From: a virus
Lineage: Duplodnaviria > Heunggongvirae > Uroviricota > Caudoviricetes
Reading direction: 5' to 3' (one strand)
DNA length: 10,211 bases
IMG/VR virus record: IMGVR_UViG_2531839265_000002
In this document: positions 1 through 10,211 of the stretch, piece after piece
Position numbering within the stretch: position 1 is the first letter of the stretch
Layout of the letters: each line of letters starts with the position of its first letter
Position numbers and translations under genes: made by a program
Notes under the pieces: generated by a model
The model's input: the letters and a program-made list of their open reading frames with translations, nothing else
Database searches by the model: none
Told to the model about the DNA's origin: nothing

Positions 1-91
1 GCAGAACATGCCGGACGGTCACGGTTTGCCCGTTCTGATATGCTGCTTCAATTTCTGCAGCGCCGGACGTTGTCAGAATCAGTCCATTCAT
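1..91 (-). CDS. Tail fibre protein, N-terminal fragment (P2 gpH-like N-terminus); gene continues beyond the window start
   Basis: ATG at 91..89 overlaps the gpI-like stop (ATGA). Translation MNGLILTTSGAAEIEAAYQNGQTVTVRHVL resembles the conserved N-terminus of P2 H-type fibres (..VITTAGAAKLAAA..). Position directly after V-W-J-I matches P2 gene order. Only 30 codons are visible. Confidence 0.5.
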   Translation of the reverse strand, partial: MNGLILTTSGAAEIEAAYQNGQTVTVRHVL

Positions 92-678
92 ACACCTGCC
101 TCACTCTGCCCGCCTGTGGGCACTGTCTTTGTTGTCACACCGGTACTTCTGATTTTTTCTGTCGCCATCACATAGCCGTAACCAAATCCACGCCCTGTGC
201 TGTTCCCGTAAACGTGAATACTGAACCAGCTGCGCAGATTTTTGGCACGGAGCACCGCATGCTTCAGATCCTGATGATCATTCATAAGCACCGGTAAATC
301 TTTCTGCTCCACGTTCAGACGGAAGGTATACGGCTCCCCGGGTGGGGTCTGCTCATACCACTCAACAATCTGCGACCGGAAGGGACTGTCAGCCAGCGAT
401 GCCATCAGCGCCGCTTTAGTCCCTCTGTGGCGGTGGATGTATGCAGCACGTTTTATCGCAGACCTTTTTTCCGCCTCCGTCCAGTGTTCATTCCAGGTGT
501 CCACCGCCATTTCCCAGGCCAGCCATGGCAGCAATTCAGCAGGACATAAATCGGGATTTTTCACATAGCGGATCAGACATACTGCGATTTCCGCCAGCAT
601 ATCACCGGCGGTACTGTCCACCACCCGCTCTGCCCGGCTGGTGCTGACAGGAAGTATGCTTCTGATTTTGTCATTCAT
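88..678 (-). CDS. I: Baseplate assembly protein, P2 gpI-like
   Basis: 196-aa ORF with ATG start and a GGTGGAG Shine-Dalgarno. Motif CPAELLPWLAWEMAVDTWNEHWTEAEKR matches P2 gpI (CPANLLPWLAWAFSVDRWDEKWPEATKR) from memory. Start overlaps the gpJ-like stop. Confidence 0.8.
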   Translation of the reverse strand: MNDKIRSILPVSTSRAERVVDSTAGDMLAEIAVCLIRYVKNPDLCPAELLPWLAWEMAVDTWNEHWTEAEKRSAIKRAAYIHRHRGTKAALMASLADSPFRSQIVEWYEQTPPGEPYTFRLNVEQKDLPVLMNDHQDLKHAVLRAKNLRSWFSIHVYGNSTGRGFGYGYVMATEKIRSTGVTTKTVPTGGQSEAGV

Positions 679-1585
679 CGGTTGTCTCCACCTTGTTCAG
701 CGTTACCTTACGGCACCACGGTGCCTGCCCCATCGCAGGAACGATATCACTGCCCGGAGAGGTCAGATTCACCGTAATCACCCCGGTCTGGTGAAGGGCA
801 CCATCCATGCCAGAACGGGATGCCACCGAGCCAATCCGGTGGACGCTGTCAGTGTATGACTGCAGCGCCTTGCGGGCATTTGCCATAACCAGTTCACCAT
901 CCAGTCCGTAGGGAATATGAATATCCGCCACCACATCGTAGGGAATAATTTCTGCCGTCCGGACACTGACAAAATCCGTCAGGGGACGGGTTTCATCATC
1001 ACAGACTGATGCTGCCACCTTATCCAGCAGGGGTTGTGGTGCAGTGCCATTTCCGGAGCGGGATAACACATAAAGAAAAACCCGGCCTTCCTGCGAATGC
1101 GTTTCCGGCCCGTAAGCCTTCACATCCAGCACATCAGGATCAGCACTTTGTGCAAAATAGTGATACGCATTTTTCGCGCCAGCGGTGCTGAGTCGTGCCC
1201 ATGACAACTGGATACGTTCGCGAAAAGCATCATCATCTTCATACACCGCAGGCGTGGGCGGGATGGTGCTGTCATCTGCCGGGGTAATCACCAGACGTTG
1301 CACCTGAAAATTCGCACCAATCTGATCCAGGTCGTTCCTCCGGGCGCTGGCAAGCAGTGCCCCCCGGACAGCATCATTGACCTGCTGGCGCATCAGCGCC
1401 ACGCGAAAAGCCAGTGCCTCTGCCCATTTATACGCCGGATCGGATTCCACCAGGGCCGAAAACAACGTGTCCAGCTCCTGATACTTCGCCACTATCTGAG
1501 TGACCAGCACAGCAGTGTCCGGCACCTCCACCGCATCCGGTACCGGTATCGCGGACAGATCAATGATTGCCTGAGACGTTGCCAA
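671..1585 (-). CDS. J: Baseplate wedge protein, P2 gpJ-like
   Basis: 304 aa, close to P2 gpJ (about 302 aa). N-terminus ..AIIDLSAIPVPDAVEV.. resembles P2 J (MPIIDLNQLPAPDVVEEL). Start is TTG at 1585 preceded by a strong GAGGAG Shine-Dalgarno; overlaps the gpW-like 3' end by 26 nt. Confidence 0.8.
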   Translation of the reverse strand: MATSQAIIDLSAIPVPDAVEVPDTAVLVTQIVAKYQELDTLFSALVESDPAYKWAEALAFRVALMRQQVNDAVRGALLASARRNDLDQIGANFQVQRLVITPADDSTIPPTPAVYEDDDAFRERIQLSWARLSTAGAKNAYHYFAQSADPDVLDVKAYGPETHSQEGRVFLYVLSRSGNGTAPQPLLDKVAASVCDDETRPLTDFVSVRTAEIIPYDVVADIHIPYGLDGELVMANARKALQSYTDSVHRIGSVASRSGMDGALHQTGVITVNLTSPGSDIVPAMGQAPWCRKVTLNKVETTDE

Positions 1586-3120: not shown

Positions 3121-3842
3121 CACTCCAGCCCCTTAAATACCCGGAATTTCAGTTCATGCTCAAAATTTTTCAGGATCAGTGCTTCCGCATCCGGAAAAAC
3201 AAAATCCTCTATACGGTTCAGCATGGCTTCATAAATATCAATTTCCGCTTCACGCACCCTCCGTCGTCCGGATGCCTGTCGGATCAGTATCGTTTTCCTT
3301 TTTGATATACGTCCGTTACGATTTTCCGCTTCGAACTGATTGATAAAGGCATCATCCGTTGACCAGGTGGTGACAGGCAGGGATTCCCCGGCAGGTTTAA
3401 AACGGATCTCCCGTGCCTTCCTCCGGTGGGAAGCTGGTGCAAAACGCCCCCGCTCATCGCGCAACTGATGGCGTTCGCCACGTCGTCCCCCACTGATGCG
3501 TCCGCGCAGATCGCGTACTTTGATGGCGTTCAGACCGAACCATACCTTCGCCTCATCAAACTCATCACCGTTACGACAAATGATAAAATTATGCAGAACA
3601 CGCTTTTTGATCATTTTCTGACTGCGTGGGGCAACCTGTTTTTTAAACTCTGCCATAGACTTCATTCGCAGTGCAGACGCGGCTCTTTTCAGCGCCACGC
3701 CCCAGGCTTTACGGATCTGACTTTTTGACCCACCCAGTTTAGCGATAATTTTCAGCACCTCATCTTCATCAATATCGACGACGAGGTTTCGTGCCAGCCG
3801 TCGCTGCCGGGCACTGCTTCGTTCATGCTCTCTGACTGCCAT
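3120..3842 (-). CDS. Z: Tail completion protein, lambda gpZ-like (arginine-rich)
   Basis: The track ORF starts at TTG 3902; the first ATG is at 3842 (MAVREHERSS..), which I take as the start. Highly basic protein with an Arg-rich central segment; its C-terminal region loosely resembles lambda gpZ, and it follows the FII-like gene as Z does in lambda. Start choice and family are both uncertain. Confidence 0.5.
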   Translation of the reverse strand: MAVREHERSSARQRRLARNLVVDIDEDEVLKIIAKLGGSKSQIRKAWGVALKRAASALRMKSMAEFKKQVAPRSQKMIKKRVLHNFIICRNGDEFDEAKVWFGLNAIKVRDLRGRISGGRRGERHQLRDERGRFAPASHRRKAREIRFKPAGESLPVTTWSTDDAFINQFEAENRNGRISKRKTILIRQASGRRRVREAEIDIYEAMLNRIEDFVFPDAEALILKNFEHELKFRVFKGLE

Positions 3843-3994
3843 AACGTTTACTCGGTCGTTCCGGTGCAGCAGGTGTATTTCTCCCCGGCTCTCCACGCGC
3901 AAGGGTGATGGTAATCACCCCCTGACCCGCAGTGCCTGACTCATCCCAGCCGGGATCGACTACCTGATAGGGTTCGCCGTGGATCATGACCCTG

Positions 3995-4228
3995 TCATAT
4001 TTTTTTCAGACCGGCGGCCCATGTGCTCCGGGTAAATAACACGGGCGCAGTATCACGAATTTCGCCGCTGCCAGTGTTCATCCCGGTGTTATCTGCCGGG
4101 GCATCAAAAACGGCACGGATTCTTCTTTCCGTGCCGCCCGGATATATGCTGATTTCCGTCCCCATCGTATCCAGGATGATGTCATCCGCATCACTCATGG
4201 CCTGATCGAACAGATTATCGAACATCAT
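3995..4228 (-). CDS. FII: Head-tail joining protein, lambda gpFII-like, N-terminal part only (frame broken at an A7 run)
   Basis: MFDNLFDQAMSDADDIILDTMGTEISI..RAVFD..PVLFTRS resembles lambda FII (MADFDNLFDAAIARADETIRGYMGT..IRGVFD..SLFVRT). The in-frame ORF stops after 77 codons just past an A7 run (T7 on plus, 4000..4006). The conserved FII C-terminus (YDRVMIHGEPYQVVD..) continues in the +1 frame down to a stop at 3825..3823. Start taken as ATG 4228 overlapping the FI stop. Confidence 0.7.
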   Translation of the reverse strand: MMFDNLFDQAMSDADDIILDTMGTEISIYPGGTERRIRAVFDAPADNTGMNTGSGEIRDTAPVLFTRSTWAAGLKKI

Positions 4229-4593
4229 CACTCCCGGATTTTTTCTGCCAGACCGTCCGCCAGCAACGCAGGAACTGCGGCTTCATTAACCAGCACAACA
4301 CTGGAGGCCCGGGCAAACATCAACATTTTTCCCGTCACAGCATCACAGGCTGGCATATGCGCCGTTTTCAGCATACGCACCCGGGCGAGTCCCCGCTCAG
4401 AATGCATTCCGTCGCCGGATGCATCGTTGCCCACCTCTTCCTTCCCTGTCTCCTCCCCATCGAATCCGGCGGCCTCCTCTTCCCATTCCGCCAGGCGCTG
4501 CTCAAGATCGGCTTTTGAACCTGAAATATCTGCTTCACGCCCCAGAATAACTGCCAGCGCCTGAAGGCGTTCCGTCATCTGCTCTTTTGTCAT
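4228..4593 (-). CDS. FI: FI-like head assembly/DNA packaging accessory protein
   Basis: ATG at 4593 preceded by GGGAGAG. N-terminus MTKEQMTERLQALAVILGREADISGSKADLEQRLAEWEEE matches lambda FI (MTKDELIARLRSLGEQLNRDVSLTGTKEELALRVAELKEEL), followed by an acidic linker. In the raw sequence this ORF is read through from the frameshifted E gene. Confidence 0.75.
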   Translation of the reverse strand: MTKEQMTERLQALAVILGREADISGSKADLEQRLAEWEEEAAGFDGEETGKEEVGNDASGDGMHSERGLARVRMLKTAHMPACDAVTGKMLMFARASSVVLVNEAAVPALLADGLAEKIRE

Positions 4594-4611
4594 CAAATCT
4601 CTCCCGTGCGC

Positions 4612-4640
4612 TAAAGAAAAAGGCGGGAATATCCCGCCCC
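4612..4640 (-). terminator. Intrinsic-terminator-like hairpin plus U-tract just downstream of the major capsid gene
   Basis: On the transcribed strand: GGCGGGA-UAU-UCCCGCC (perfect 7-bp GC-rich stem) followed by UUUUUCUUU. It lies between the homology-defined E stop (4646..4644) and the FI start (4593). Confidence 0.5.
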
Positions 4641-4643
4641 GTC

Positions 4644-5673
4644 TTATTTCACCTGAACCACCACAAACGCATCCGGATCCGGCAGCACCATCAACGGCGC
4701 AGACTGCGTCATGGTATATTCGCAACCAGGATCCCCCCACTTCCTCCCAGTGTTTCGGATAACGAATCGCAGAGGTGATCCCTTCACTCAGTGCCTGATT
4801 ATCCTGAATGGCACCATAACAACGGACGCCTTCCGCCTGAGTGTTCCCCAGAATCAGTGTACCTTCCGGCAGATAACGCTGTTCATCCCCGTTTTCGTCA
4901 ACATACGTTGTCTTCGCCACCACAATTGCCAGATCGCCGTAATAACCTTTAAAGGAAACCACGGAGCCCAGGTCTTTCAGTGCCGTTTCCAGCTCAGATT
5001 TGGAGCCACGGCGGGTATCCAGTTTTTCACGGAACAGTTTAAAACCGTTCAGCATACGCCAGACCGTGCCGTCCATAATCGCGATATTGATGGTGCCGGA
5101 AGCGAAATCGCAGTACGCATCCAGATCATGCGTCGGATCGAAGGTGTCAGCATTCTGCTGTGACCATTCGCGTCCGCCAGCCTGCGTAATGTTATTGGCG
5201 GCAGAACGCCCAAAATCCACTTCCACCGTCTCAAACTGCTCGCCGCTCATGGTGTATTTACCCTGCAGAACGGCACTGACCGCCTGCATTTCTTCCACCT
5301 GCACAATCGCCTGCTCTTCCTGTTTCAGGTTGTCTGTCAGAATACGCAGACGGCGGTAAGCCGGGTCATTAAGGCGGGCCGGATCCTCTCCCGGAAGACG
5401 TTCCACTGCCTGCTGATAATCAAAGCGGTGTTTTGGTTTTACATAACCGGGACGTAACACGCGGGTTTCACCACCACGGCTGCGCAGCACTTTGCCTGAC
5501 ACCACCGGAGACACATACGCCGCGACCGGTGTTTTGCCGGTAATTTTATCCAGCATGACTTCCTGAGTATGGAAAGTGATCGTGCGACGAAAGAACAGCT
5601 CCAGAAACAGCGCACGAAATTTCACTTTCTGCTCGGTGTACCCGAGTAACTGACGCGTGGTAAATAACCCCAT
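4644..5673 (-). CDS. E: Major capsid protein, lambda gpE-like (frame broken by one extra base in a G6 run near the 3' end)
   Basis: ATG at 5673 with AAGGA Shine-Dalgarno. Strong similarity to lambda gpE across the protein (MGLFTTRQLLGYTEQKVKFRALFLELFF.. against MSMYTTAQLLAANEQKFKFDPLFLRLFF..; KPKH, AYRR, DTRRGS, LGNTQA motifs). After ..YPKHWEEVG the gpE-like C-terminus (DPGCEYTMTQSAPLMVLPDPDAFVVVQVK) is in the +1 frame and ends at TAA 4646..4644. As sequenced the ORF instead runs on to 4228, fused to FI. Confidence 0.85.
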
Positions 5674-5741: not shown

Positions 5742-6077
5742 TCAGGCGTGGCTGATGGCACTTCCCACAAATGCGTTGGCTTTTTTCACCGCATCCACAG
5801 AGTCAGGCCAGACCAGCGACTCAGTGGCAAACGTACCGCTTTTGTAGTACGTCAGCATGGACTCAGTCCCGGTAAGCGCCAGAGCCAGCACGCCCACTGC
5901 CGTTCCGGCTTTCTGACCATCCCATGCCACCAGTTTACCGGTGGCGTCATCCAGCATCAGTGGCGTCAGTGCAGGCATGGCGGCACTGATACCACTGGTG
6001 GCTTTTGCGGTATGCGCCGGATCGTTTCCGGCAAAAATGTGCACATCCGCGCGCTTTTCCGTGGTGGTTTTAATCAT
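5742..6077 (-). CDS. D: Head decoration protein, lambda gpD-like
   Basis: 111 aa against 110 aa for lambda D. Motifs NDPAHTA, TPLMLD, KLVAWDG, YYKSGTF match lambda D (SDPAHTA, TPLMLD, KLVAWDG, FYKSGTF). ATG start with AGGAGG Shine-Dalgarno. Confidence 0.9.
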   Translation of the reverse strand: MIKTTTEKRADVHIFAGNDPAHTAKATSGISAAMPALTPLMLDDATGKLVAWDGQKAGTAVGVLALALTGTESMLTYYKSGTFATESLVWPDSVDAVKKANAFVGSAISHA

Positions 6078-6115
6078 TTTTCAGCCTCCTGATTTATCTG
6101 AATTCCGGATATCGC

Positions 6116-6826
6116 TTACGGCATACTCATCAGCAGGTCTTCCTCCCCGCGCCCGGCAGTTCCGCCACCGGAAACCGCACTGGCAGCATGCTGTGCCATA
6201 AAGCGATCAAAAAGTGTTTCCTGTGACGGTTGCGATGCCGCCGGCGCGGCTGCCAGTAGCGTTTTCGCCTGCGCCACCGTCATTCCCGGTTGTTCTGTCA
6301 GTGCCTGTGCAAGTTGCTCGCGCCCTTTTGCCTCCGGCAGCGCCATAATCTGATCGCCGACACTTGCAGAACCAGCAACCGGTGCCGCCGCCAGTAACGT
6401 TTTGGCCTGGTCAACGGTCATTCCCGGCTGTTCAGCCAGCGCCTGCGCGAGTTGTTCACGCCCTTTTGCTTCCGGTAACGCCATAATCTGATCGCCTGTG
6501 CCTGCAGCACCGGCAGCAGGGGCTGCCGCCAGAAACGCTTTCGCCTGCTTCACCGTCATCCCCGGCTGACCTGCCAGCATCTGTGCCAGTTGCTCACGCC
6601 CCTTTGCTTCCGGCAGCCCCATAATCTGATCACCTGTATTTGCCACACTGGCAGCAGGCACAGCAGCCAGGAACGCTTTCGCCTGCTCTACCGTCATTCC
6701 AGGCTGACCTGCCAGCATTTGCGCCAGTTGCTCGCGCCCTTTCGCCTCCTGACAATTCAGGATCCCCATCACGCGCTGATTTTCCTGGGCCACCGCTTCA
6801 GCAACGGTGAGATTTTTAACAGTCAT
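6116..6826 (-). CDS. nu3: Nu3-like scaffolding protein, nested in-frame within the 3' part of the C-like gene
   Basis: Internal ATG at 6826..6824 preceded at ideal spacing by AAGGAG (transcribed strand CGAAGGAGAATGCAATG). Translation MTVKNLTVAEAVAQENQRVMGILNCQEAKGRE.. parallels the lambda Nu3 region (..AAVAAENSRIMGILNCEEAHGRE..). In lambda, Nu3 is an in-frame internal initiation product of the C reading frame. Confidence 0.55.
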   Translation of the reverse strand: MTVKNLTVAEAVAQENQRVMGILNCQEAKGREQLAQMLAGQPGMTVEQAKAFLAAVPAASVANTGDQIMGLPEAKGREQLAQMLAGQPGMTVKQAKAFLAAAPAAGAAGTGDQIMALPEAKGREQLAQALAEQPGMTVDQAKTLLAAAPVAGSASVGDQIMALPEAKGREQLAQALTEQPGMTVAQAKTLLAAAPAASQPSQETLFDRFMAQHAASAVSGGGTAGRGEEDLLMSMP

Positions 6827-7732: not shown

Positions 7733-9293
7733 CGCCTTTTTCTCCCGTTGTCTGTCGGATCTGCTGCTGAAACGTGTCCTTAATCCAGATGGGGCGGGGA
7801 AGACCCGCTGCCTGTCGCTCCTGGCTTTCACGCAGTTGCTGACGGAAAATCTCCTGATAGTCATCGCCCATCAGAGCCAGCTCTTTCTCGTACGTGCTTA
7901 AACCACCTTCAATACGCATCACCGCTTCCTGCACTTCCTTAAGGCCATCAATCGCCATGCGACCGGCACCAATCCACTCGGCACGACACCATCCGGAACG
8001 GGCCTCCCAGAATGAAAAACGGGATTTCGGCGGGCGGATCACACCGCGAATAAGAGCTTCCTCCAGCCAGCAGGCAAACATCTGTGATGCCAGCCGGCTG
8101 GCCACAAATTTTCGTTTGCCCATAAAATACCGCCACGACTCATTGGCGGATGCCCTGGCACTGGAATAACTGACCTGTGAATAATCACGGGAAAGCTGTT
8201 CATAGGACACCCCCAGTCCGGCAGCGATGTAACGTAACAGCGCCTTTTCCAGTTCAGAGAAACCATTATCTGCATTCTGCGCTGTCTGCAGATTCAGTGA
8301 ATCCCCCGGATAAAGATGCGGAATACGGACCCCACCCAGCTTTACCGTATTGGTGGCGTAATAACGCGCGTAGCCTTTCATGATGGTGTTCAGGGGATTT
8401 TTACCGCCATCTCCCACCCCGGCGATATATTCAAATGCTTTTTCCGAATCCAGCGTGGATTCAATCGTCGCGGCATACATCGCCCGCACCACCGCCGACT
8501 GCAGTTGCGTGGCCTGCAGTGTGTCGAGCATCTTGAGACGCTCCATGACAGAATAAAACTGGTTGGCCCCGCGCGTCTGCCCGTCCTCCTGCGGCTGAAA
8601 CACATGGATCATTCCCGGTCGCCCGGAGGGCAGCGTCGCCGCAATCCGCGTCCAGTTGCTGACACCGTAACCGGGCCAGTCATCTTCCTGAACATGGTAG
8701 GCCAGTGCTTTTCCGTACCGGTTGATCTCCACCCCGGCACGCATAAAACGATCGCCGGTACCATAACCGGGTGTACTGACACGTTTCGGGCTGATGGTCT
8801 TGAATTTCGTCCGGAATAATGACGTGGATTCCGTATCCCATACGGGCTGGACAAAAATTTCACCGTTAAACGTATGAACGCCCACCCCTTCACGAATAAA
8901 TTCGGTAAACGAGCGACGCCCCTCCACATCCATCGAACCAAACACAGGATCGCAATATTCCATCCACGCCGCCTCCACATCTTCAATAAAGGCATGCGAA
9001 TCAGCTTCCGACATCCCCAGCCAGCGCCAGTTGGGCCGGTAGCTCAGGCGAAACATGTGCCCGACGATATGGTCTTTATGAATTTCCACTGCATTTGCGG
9101 CAATACCGTTGTTACGGACCAGATCATCCGCACGGGCGTTACCCAGCTGAATGGAAGGTAAGAGCGCCACGTCGGCACTTTCCGGTGCAGGCAACCATTC
9201 CGCAAGCTGCCCGCCAAATCCGGTACCCCCTCCGGAATATCCCATACTCTGCCGCAATGGCTGCCCGTGAAGATCCACCAGTTCCCTGTTCAC
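7722..9293 (-). CDS. B: Portal protein, lambda gpB-like
   Basis: 523 aa against 533 aa for lambda B. Similarity throughout (GGGTGFGGQ, LLP..GNARADDLVRNNG.AANA, FNGE.FVQ..WDT, DGQTRGAN.FYSVME.LKMLDTLQ.TQLQSA, GLGVSYEQLSR.Y.Q.SYS.ARASANESW, RMAIDGLKEVQEAVM). Start is GTG at 9293 overlapping the gpW stop (GTGA). Confidence 0.9.
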   Translation of the reverse strand: MNRELVDLHGQPLRQSMGYSGGGTGFGGQLAEWLPAPESADVALLPSIQLGNARADDLVRNNGIAANAVEIHKDHIVGHMFRLSYRPNWRWLGMSEADSHAFIEDVEAAWMEYCDPVFGSMDVEGRRSFTEFIREGVGVHTFNGEIFVQPVWDTESTSLFRTKFKTISPKRVSTPGYGTGDRFMRAGVEINRYGKALAYHVQEDDWPGYGVSNWTRIAATLPSGRPGMIHVFQPQEDGQTRGANQFYSVMERLKMLDTLQATQLQSAVVRAMYAATIESTLDSEKAFEYIAGVGDGGKNPLNTIMKGYARYYATNTVKLGGVRIPHLYPGDSLNLQTAQNADNGFSELEKALLRYIAAGLGVSYEQLSRDYSQVSYSSARASANESWRYFMGKRKFVASRLASQMFACWLEEALIRGVIRPPKSRFSFWEARSGWCRAEWIGAGRMAIDGLKEVQEAVMRIEGGLSTYEKELALMGDDYQEIFRQQLRESQERQAAGLPRPIWIKDTFQQQIRQTTGEKGDAS

Positions 9294-9499
9294 AGCCCCA
9301 CTCCTGCCGGGCCACGACGCCGTCCGGATACGCCCAGCGCACTTTCCAGCTCTTCAATATACTGGCGTAGTTCACCAATCGTCGCCCGCGAATACTGAAC
9401 CTGACGCCCGTCCTTACTGACGGAAACCACAGCACGTCCGATCATCAGTTCATGTAATGCCCGGCGGGCATCACAAAGCATTTCATGCGTATAAACCAT
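9290..9499 (-). CDS. W: Head-tail joining protein, lambda gpW-like
   Basis: 69 aa against 68 aa for lambda W. ARRALHELMIGRAVVSVSKDGR.V.YSRATIGELRQYIEELE...G..RRRGPAG resembles lambda W ([56 protein letters not shown]). ATG with GGAGG Shine-Dalgarno, 2 nt after the terminase stop. Confidence 0.85.
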   Translation of the reverse strand: MVYTHEMLCDARRALHELMIGRAVVSVSKDGRQVQYSRATIGELRQYIEELESALGVSGRRRGPAGVGL

Positions 9500-9501
9500 T
9501 T

Positions 9502-10211
9502 TTATCCTCCACTCAGTGCAGCCGCGATTTCTTCCAGACTCATCTCATCGTCGTCCTGCTCATCTCTTCTGGCACGGGCCAGTGCTTCAAGATCCAGCTG
9601 CCACCGCTGAACTGAAATACGCAGGGCAGCATAGGCATATACCAGGCAGTCGAGGGCTTCGTTGCGTCGCCCTTTTTTATCCCACAGCAGTTTTACCCTG
9701 CCATTAACCACCTTCTCCACCAGCTCTTCCGCCACGATCTGACGCGCCTCTTCTTCCGAAAAAATGTCGGGGTTATCCGGAAAACGGAAGGTATACGGGG
9801 CGGCTTCACTGGCAGAGACCACCGGCAGTGCAAAACGGGCGTACAGCATTTCCTTGACGGTATCGGAGCCCACCTCACACAAAAACACACCACGCTGGTT
9901 GCGCTTTTTGGGCATGGTGATCACCGGCTTGCCGTACACCGATGCCCCTTTTATGGGAAGCACAAAAAAAGTGCCGTGTTTCCTGGAACGCTGATACACA
10001 ATGTCCTGGTCGATACCACCGGTATCCCAGCAGACACGGGAAATGGAAATTTCAGTACCGTCAGCATGACGATATTTTTTCCGGATCACCGTATCAACAC
10101 GTTTAAGGGTGTCCTCGTCTTCCGGTCGCCCCATGATAATTTGCTTATCAATCAGAAAGGCTTCTTCGCCGGGAGCCCAGCCCCACACATAAATTTCATA
10201 GCGATCTTTCT
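9502..10211 (-). CDS. A: Terminase large subunit, lambda gpA-like, C-terminal portion (5' end beyond the window)
   Basis: The reading frame is open to the window edge and ends at TAA 9504..9502. Called from its size, its position immediately upstream of the W-B-C-D-E block, and my recollection of the lambda gpA C-terminal region; no motif was aligned residue by residue. Confidence 0.8.
   Translation of the reverse strand, partial: KDRYEIYVWGWAPGEEAFLIDKQIIMGRPEDEDTLKRVDTVIRKKYRHADGTEISISRVCWDTGGIDQDIVYQRSRKHGTFFVLPIKGASVYGKPVITMPKKRNQRGVFLCEVGSDTVKEMLYARFALPVVSASEAAPYTFRFPDNPDIFSEEEARQIVAEELVEKVVNGRVKLLWDKKGRRNEALDCLVYAYAALRISVQRWQLDLEALARARRDEQDDDEMSLEEIAAALSGG

Follow-up and report, generated by a model that had tools for sequence, protein, structure and literature searches.

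The major capsid gene in the stretch of DNA analysed here (10,211 nt, hereafter the window) is put out of frame by one surplus G in a mononucleotide run, and this extra base is very probably a homopolymer-length miscall in the draft assembly GCA_000243195.1 of Escherichia coli 4_1_47FAA, in which the window forms one contig of scaffold JH594577.1. The frameshift is present in the deposited sequence; in the organism itself it is most likely not real. The actual prophage would carry G5 and a normal 342-aa capsid gene of the lambda gpE type ending in TAA at 4646..4644, followed by a terminator-like hairpin and then by a separately initiated 121-aa FI gene, and the 481-aa E-FI protein would exist in annotation only.

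The capsid gene, its G run and the FI gene

The genes of the window lie on the minus strand. The capsid gene (4644..5673, minus) is 1030 nt long as deposited, and its G run at 4738..4733 (minus; C6 on the plus strand) reads T-GGGGGG-A, with one G more than in every relative; with one G taken out, the gene is 1029 nt long and encodes 342 amino acids. An initial sequence-only reading had proposed that one extra base in this C6/G6 run breaks a gpE-like gene, which the relatives, all one base shorter here, bear out. As deposited, the gene runs into a 481-aa E-FI read-through ORF (4228..5673, minus), which is recorded in GenBank as EHP62742.1 under the annotation "major head protein" and is judged here to be an artefact. 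Residues 5–318 of this ORF match the Pfam family Phage_cap_E (profile positions 1–307 of 329) up to ...IRYPKHWEEVG, the very point to which the sequence-only reading had traced the likeness to gpE. On the 3′ side of the G run, the ORF continues with an out-of-frame stretch, GSWLRIYHDAVCAVDGAAGSGCVCGGSGEIRRGGIFPPFSLAHGRDL, and then with complete FI, residues 362–476 matching Pfam Packaging_FI over the whole profile (1–131 of 131).

Removal of one G gave a 342-aa protein with the C terminus DPGCEYTMTQSAPLMVLPDPDAFVVVQVK and the TAA stop at 4646..4644. This corrected protein matches Pfam PF03864 (Phage_cap_E) across the full profile (1–329 of 329, E = 5.4e-66) and aligns end to end (1–341) with lambda gpE (PDB 7vi9, E = 1.5e-129), in agreement with the earlier proposal that a gpE-like C terminus lies in the shifted frame and that taking out one base restores 342 amino acids. 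Gene calls, Pfam matches and the PGAP annotation of relatives place the gene in a head-gene cluster comprising portal, S49 protease/scaffold, decoration protein, capsid, FI and FII. Judged both by family match and by position in this cluster, the corrected product is a major capsid protein of the lambda gpE type.

Between the capsid stop and FI lies a terminator-like hairpin with a T tract (4640..4620, minus), formed by 9 pairs, 6 of them G-C, with a loop of 3 and the tail TTTCTTT; it is conserved in relatives. The FI gene itself, encoding a DNA-packaging protein, is intact (4228..4593, minus; 121 aa; Pfam PF14000, profile 1–131 of 131) and has a start of its own, with the Shine-Dalgarno sequence GGGAGAG at 4605..4599 and ATG at 4593..4591. 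The 481-aa ORF traverses the hairpin as well as the FI Shine-Dalgarno sequence and ATG, so the read-through to a 481-aa chimera that had been described from the sequence was found as stated. An identical stand-alone 121-aa FI product was present in 106 collection blocks and stood 3′ of a 342-aa capsid gene in every place shown, these genomic places being taken from the 24 of the 106 blocks with the longest contigs, with short Logan contigs outside this set. Its own start and the full-length PF14000 match identify FI as an independent gene.

Compared with phage lambda, the gene order W-B-C(S49)-D-E-FI-FII is the same, and FI is likewise preceded by an intergenic hairpin and has a start of its own. 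Two differences were apparent: as deposited, out-of-frame sequence replaces the last 28 residues of gpE, and the prophage couples its lambda-like head module to a contractile tail module of the P2 type, not to a lambda tail. This mosaic was seen across the whole window and L032/L042 (about 20 kb), where the packaging and head genes are lambda-like (Nu1, A, W, portal, S49 protease/scaffold, D, E, FI and FII) and are joined to a P2-like set of contractile-tail genes (V, gp25/W, J, I, fibre, sheath, tube, chaperone, tape measure, U, X and D). Among these prophages, the length of the S49 protease/scaffold gene differs (1617 nt here, 1755 nt in STEC005 and 1608 nt in OkiPb01676; window about 6240..6750 against 3050..3700 of L001), owing to an internal repeat of ~138 nt and to a repetitive Ala/Gly-rich segment that differs by 9 nt.

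Run length in relatives and databases

In the alignments, one base was missing at exactly the G run in every relative examined, so the extra base is no effect of chance alignment. Eight E. coli prophages, 95–98% identical, all carried G5 (GGGTG in strain M8), and in each the annotation shows a major capsid gene of 1029 nt and, after it, gpFI as a gene of its own. Whether close homologues have five rather than six bases at this position, the comparison put forward in the sequence-only reading, was thereby answered: all have five.

Wider searches gave the same picture. Of the 72 complete E. coli genomes hit by a 70-nt query with the run at its centre, none had G6 (0/72), and the best match was 69/70 with one gap. 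When a pattern allowing either G5 or G6 was used, 14 viral and 4 metagenome contigs matched, and all 18 had G5 and none G6; a 40-mer containing G6 found no match in 185,579 species-representative genomes. At the protein level, the exact 481-aa product occurred on only 1 contig among about 15 billion proteins, namely scaffold JH594577.1, and the cluster to which it belongs has 660 members, the listed full-length members being 342 aa long. The phage-isolate collection yielded no close relative of the window, the best entry showing 74% identity over 39% of its length, in the head module only (phage 21 and lambda types).

Near-identical prophages were found by means of the lineage-specific amino-acid variants that they share with the window. 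Thirteen independent assemblies cover the stretch at 99.90–99.96% identity to the window (2–8 substitutions in 10,211 nt). Five of them are NCBI assemblies of isolates and two are ENA assemblies of metagenomes; the others are Logan assemblies made from five SRA runs. All 13 have G5 at the capsid run and A6 at a second run described below, with intact genes for E (342 aa), FI (121), FII (133), tube (172) and tape measure (550).

Other run-length changes on the source scaffold

The window extends from the scaffold end to a gap of 69 N (scaffold 10212..10280), which lies just beyond window position 1. In intact relatives the gap stands for only 17 nt of real sequence, its size having been over-estimated, which suggests that the region was poorly covered or poorly assembled. 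A Logan contig of SRR028720 (1,354 nt) corresponds to scaffold 8848..10201, or window 11..1364, at 100% identity; it lies outside the G run and stops 10 nt short of the same contig break. SRR028720 is an old SRA run and may be the read set of strain 4_1_47FAA itself. A search of the literature with the strain, assembly, scaffold, protein and run accessions found no mention of the sequencing platform.

A second frameshift, missed in the sequence-only reading, was located in the window at an A7 run (4000..4006, minus) that is A6 in relatives. It lies in the FII-like head-tail joining gene (3823..4228, minus; Pfam Phage_attach), which it splits into ORFs of 78 and 54 aa in place of the 133–134 aa seen in relatives. 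A truncated 76-aa FII product is recorded on a single contig, again scaffold JH594577.1. Beyond the window, the scaffold carries four further changes that are absent from the near-identical prophages: A6>A5 at scaffold position 11614, A8>A7 at 13684 in the tube gene (called at 128 aa versus 172), and A6>A7 at both 14734 and 15660 in the tape-measure gene. Besides the G run, the scaffold thus has private length changes of one base in five other runs, and in four cases an essential gene is hit (FII, tube and twice the tape measure).

Two intergenic single-base differences between the window and some relatives are harmless and common to the near-identical prophages. At 6077..6085, in the spacer 5′ of the decoration-protein ATG, the window has A5 where some relatives have A6 or A7; this is a real polymorphism, as strains A36 and cq9 share the A5. 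At 9497..9501, a G is missing from the 3-nt spacer that separates the stop of the terminase gene from the start of gpW.

Substitutions and indels were then set against each other. Relative to the first 26 relatives (95–98% identical), the window had 28 private substitutions and 2 private indels, a ratio that fits natural divergence too; the comparison became informative once the near-identical prophages had been found. On the branch belonging to the scaffold itself, six run-length changes (G5>G6, A6>A7 three times, A8>A7 and A6>A5; four of +1 and two of −1) were counted against 2 substitutions over 17,075 compared positions. The changes fell preferentially in long runs, affecting 0 of 226 runs of length 4, 1 of 76 of length 5, 4 of 23 of length 6, 0 of 6 of length 7 and the only run of length 8 (1/1). 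Indels make up about one tenth of natural mutations in E. coli mutation-accumulation studies. If they are taken as ~10%, the computed probability of at least 6 indels among eight events is ~2e-5.

In the G run, then, a single-base length change is private to one assembly and near-identical genomes agree on the other length; several such events occur in the same assembly, where they exceed substitutions, go in both directions and favour long runs. These observations suggest that the discrepancies arose in sequencing or assembly and not in the cell, and the six-change pattern is the one expected when run lengths are miscalled in a draft of thin coverage. Broad HMP drafts of the period of GCA_000243195.1 were presumably made by 454 pyrosequencing, a flow-based method. 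Miscalling of run lengths is a failure mode of 454 pyrosequencing. The closest known parallel is with draft or long-read assemblies in which homopolymer errors give rise to frameshifted or fused CDS annotations; they share the features seen here, namely single-base gains or losses in runs of at least 5 that are private to one assembly, come several to a scaffold, run in both directions and affect long runs. The outcome is shared too, genes being either split (FII, tube and tape measure) or fused (E-FI). The present case differs in that the changes are known from assembled sequences.

Competing explanations and consequences

Of the alternatives, the one that survives best is that the extra G is a real and very recent frameshift, the prophage of 4_1_47FAA being under inactivation and making a non-functional, C-terminally truncated capsid protein fused to FI. 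We regard this as improbable. Homopolymer runs are natural hotspots for indels, so that each of the events, taken singly, is compatible with real mutation, and frameshifted structural genes are common in cryptic E. coli prophages; a mismatch-repair-deficient or long-passaged isolate could also enrich run-length changes over substitutions. Even so, a real origin would require run lengths to have mutated independently six times on a single terminal branch that has only 2 substitutions, none of the six is common to any of the 13 near-identical prophages, and the assembly is a gapped draft in which 69 N span just 17 nt.

The marks of a pseudogene in a decaying prophage were also looked for and were not found. 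After frame correction, none of 14 genes (0/14) contained an internal stop or other nonsense mutation, no deletions or insertion sequences were seen, and gene order and gene lengths equal those of intact relatives. The 28 lineage-specific substitutions comprise 18 synonymous and 10 nonsynonymous changes, with no sign of relaxed selection, and just 2 substitutions are private to the scaffold. Since the substitutions are mostly synonymous and internal stops are absent, there is no sign of decay beyond the run-length changes themselves, and error is favoured over decay because six private run-length changes stand against two private substitutions on a draft scaffold when near-identical prophages are used as the reference. 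The order in which the sequence-only reading had ranked the causes (sequencing error, then a real inactivating mutation, with slippage least likely) is supported by this comparison.

Complete genomes of relatives also contain private run-length frameshifts of their own, which could be taken to speak for real mutation. ETEC4073 (relative L006, 5820..6590) has a private A6>A7 change that fuses FI and FII into a 771-nt CDS; A36 (L007, 1168..2693) has two private G5>G6 changes in its portal gene, and cq9 (L008, 2681..4298) has a change in the S49 peptidase gene, both genes being marked "frameshifted" by PGAP. It is just as likely, however, that these are errors in the assemblies concerned, and the frameshifts in these "complete" genomes probably belong to the same class of assembly error. 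If the frameshift in 4_1_47FAA were real, it would add merely one more dead prophage.

It is very hard to credit that G6 is a recoding or slippage site from which normal gpE and a minor E-FI fusion would both arise, through +1 frameshifting by the ribosome or slippage during transcription. Judging from the sequence, a +1 re-pairing of tRNA-Gly from GGG to GGG inside G6 is possible in principle and would restore ..VGDPG.., and the shifted frame is open into FI in most close relatives. This open frame spans only ~48 codons, however, which is unremarkable in G+C-rich DNA, and it is closed before FI in the relatives L002, L004 and L014; in OkiPb01676, the hairpin between the two genes has one G more, so that the shifted frame stops after 60 aa and no longer leads into FI. 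The slippery run is not conserved either, G6 being found in no other genome and the run being interrupted in strain M8 (GGGTG), and relatives with G5 obtain full-length gpE without leaving the zero frame. No stimulatory structure lies beside the run, the sole hairpin being ~93 nt downstream with a terminator-type stem. Finally, gpE is needed in hundreds of copies per capsid, a number beyond the reach of rare slippage. Programmed ribosomal frameshifting and transcriptional slippage were accordingly rejected, since neither the run nor a product of the alternative frame is conserved and no stimulatory structure lies nearby. The programmed frameshift of T7 gene 10A/10B offers the closest parallel, as there too a capsid ORF can be extended at its C terminus in another frame, but here neither a slippery site nor the frame relation is conserved, a stimulatory structure is absent from the vicinity, and the extension is simply the next gene, FI, in one assembly only. 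Scarcely more credible is the variant in which G6 would be real in 4_1_47FAA as a slippage-prone switch giving mostly E-FI fusion and little normal gpE; if true, it would amount to contingency-type on/off control of prophage capsid production.

With a miscall as the preferred reading, the main value of the result is one of data hygiene. The comparison also provides a practical test for cases in which reads are not at hand: near-identical copies are found, and private run-length changes are compared with private substitutions. The scaffold's divided gene calls (FII, tube and tape measure) should not be counted as evidence of a defective prophage, nor the 481-aa entry EHP62742.1 as a natural capsid-FI fusion; all of these are best flagged as artefacts.
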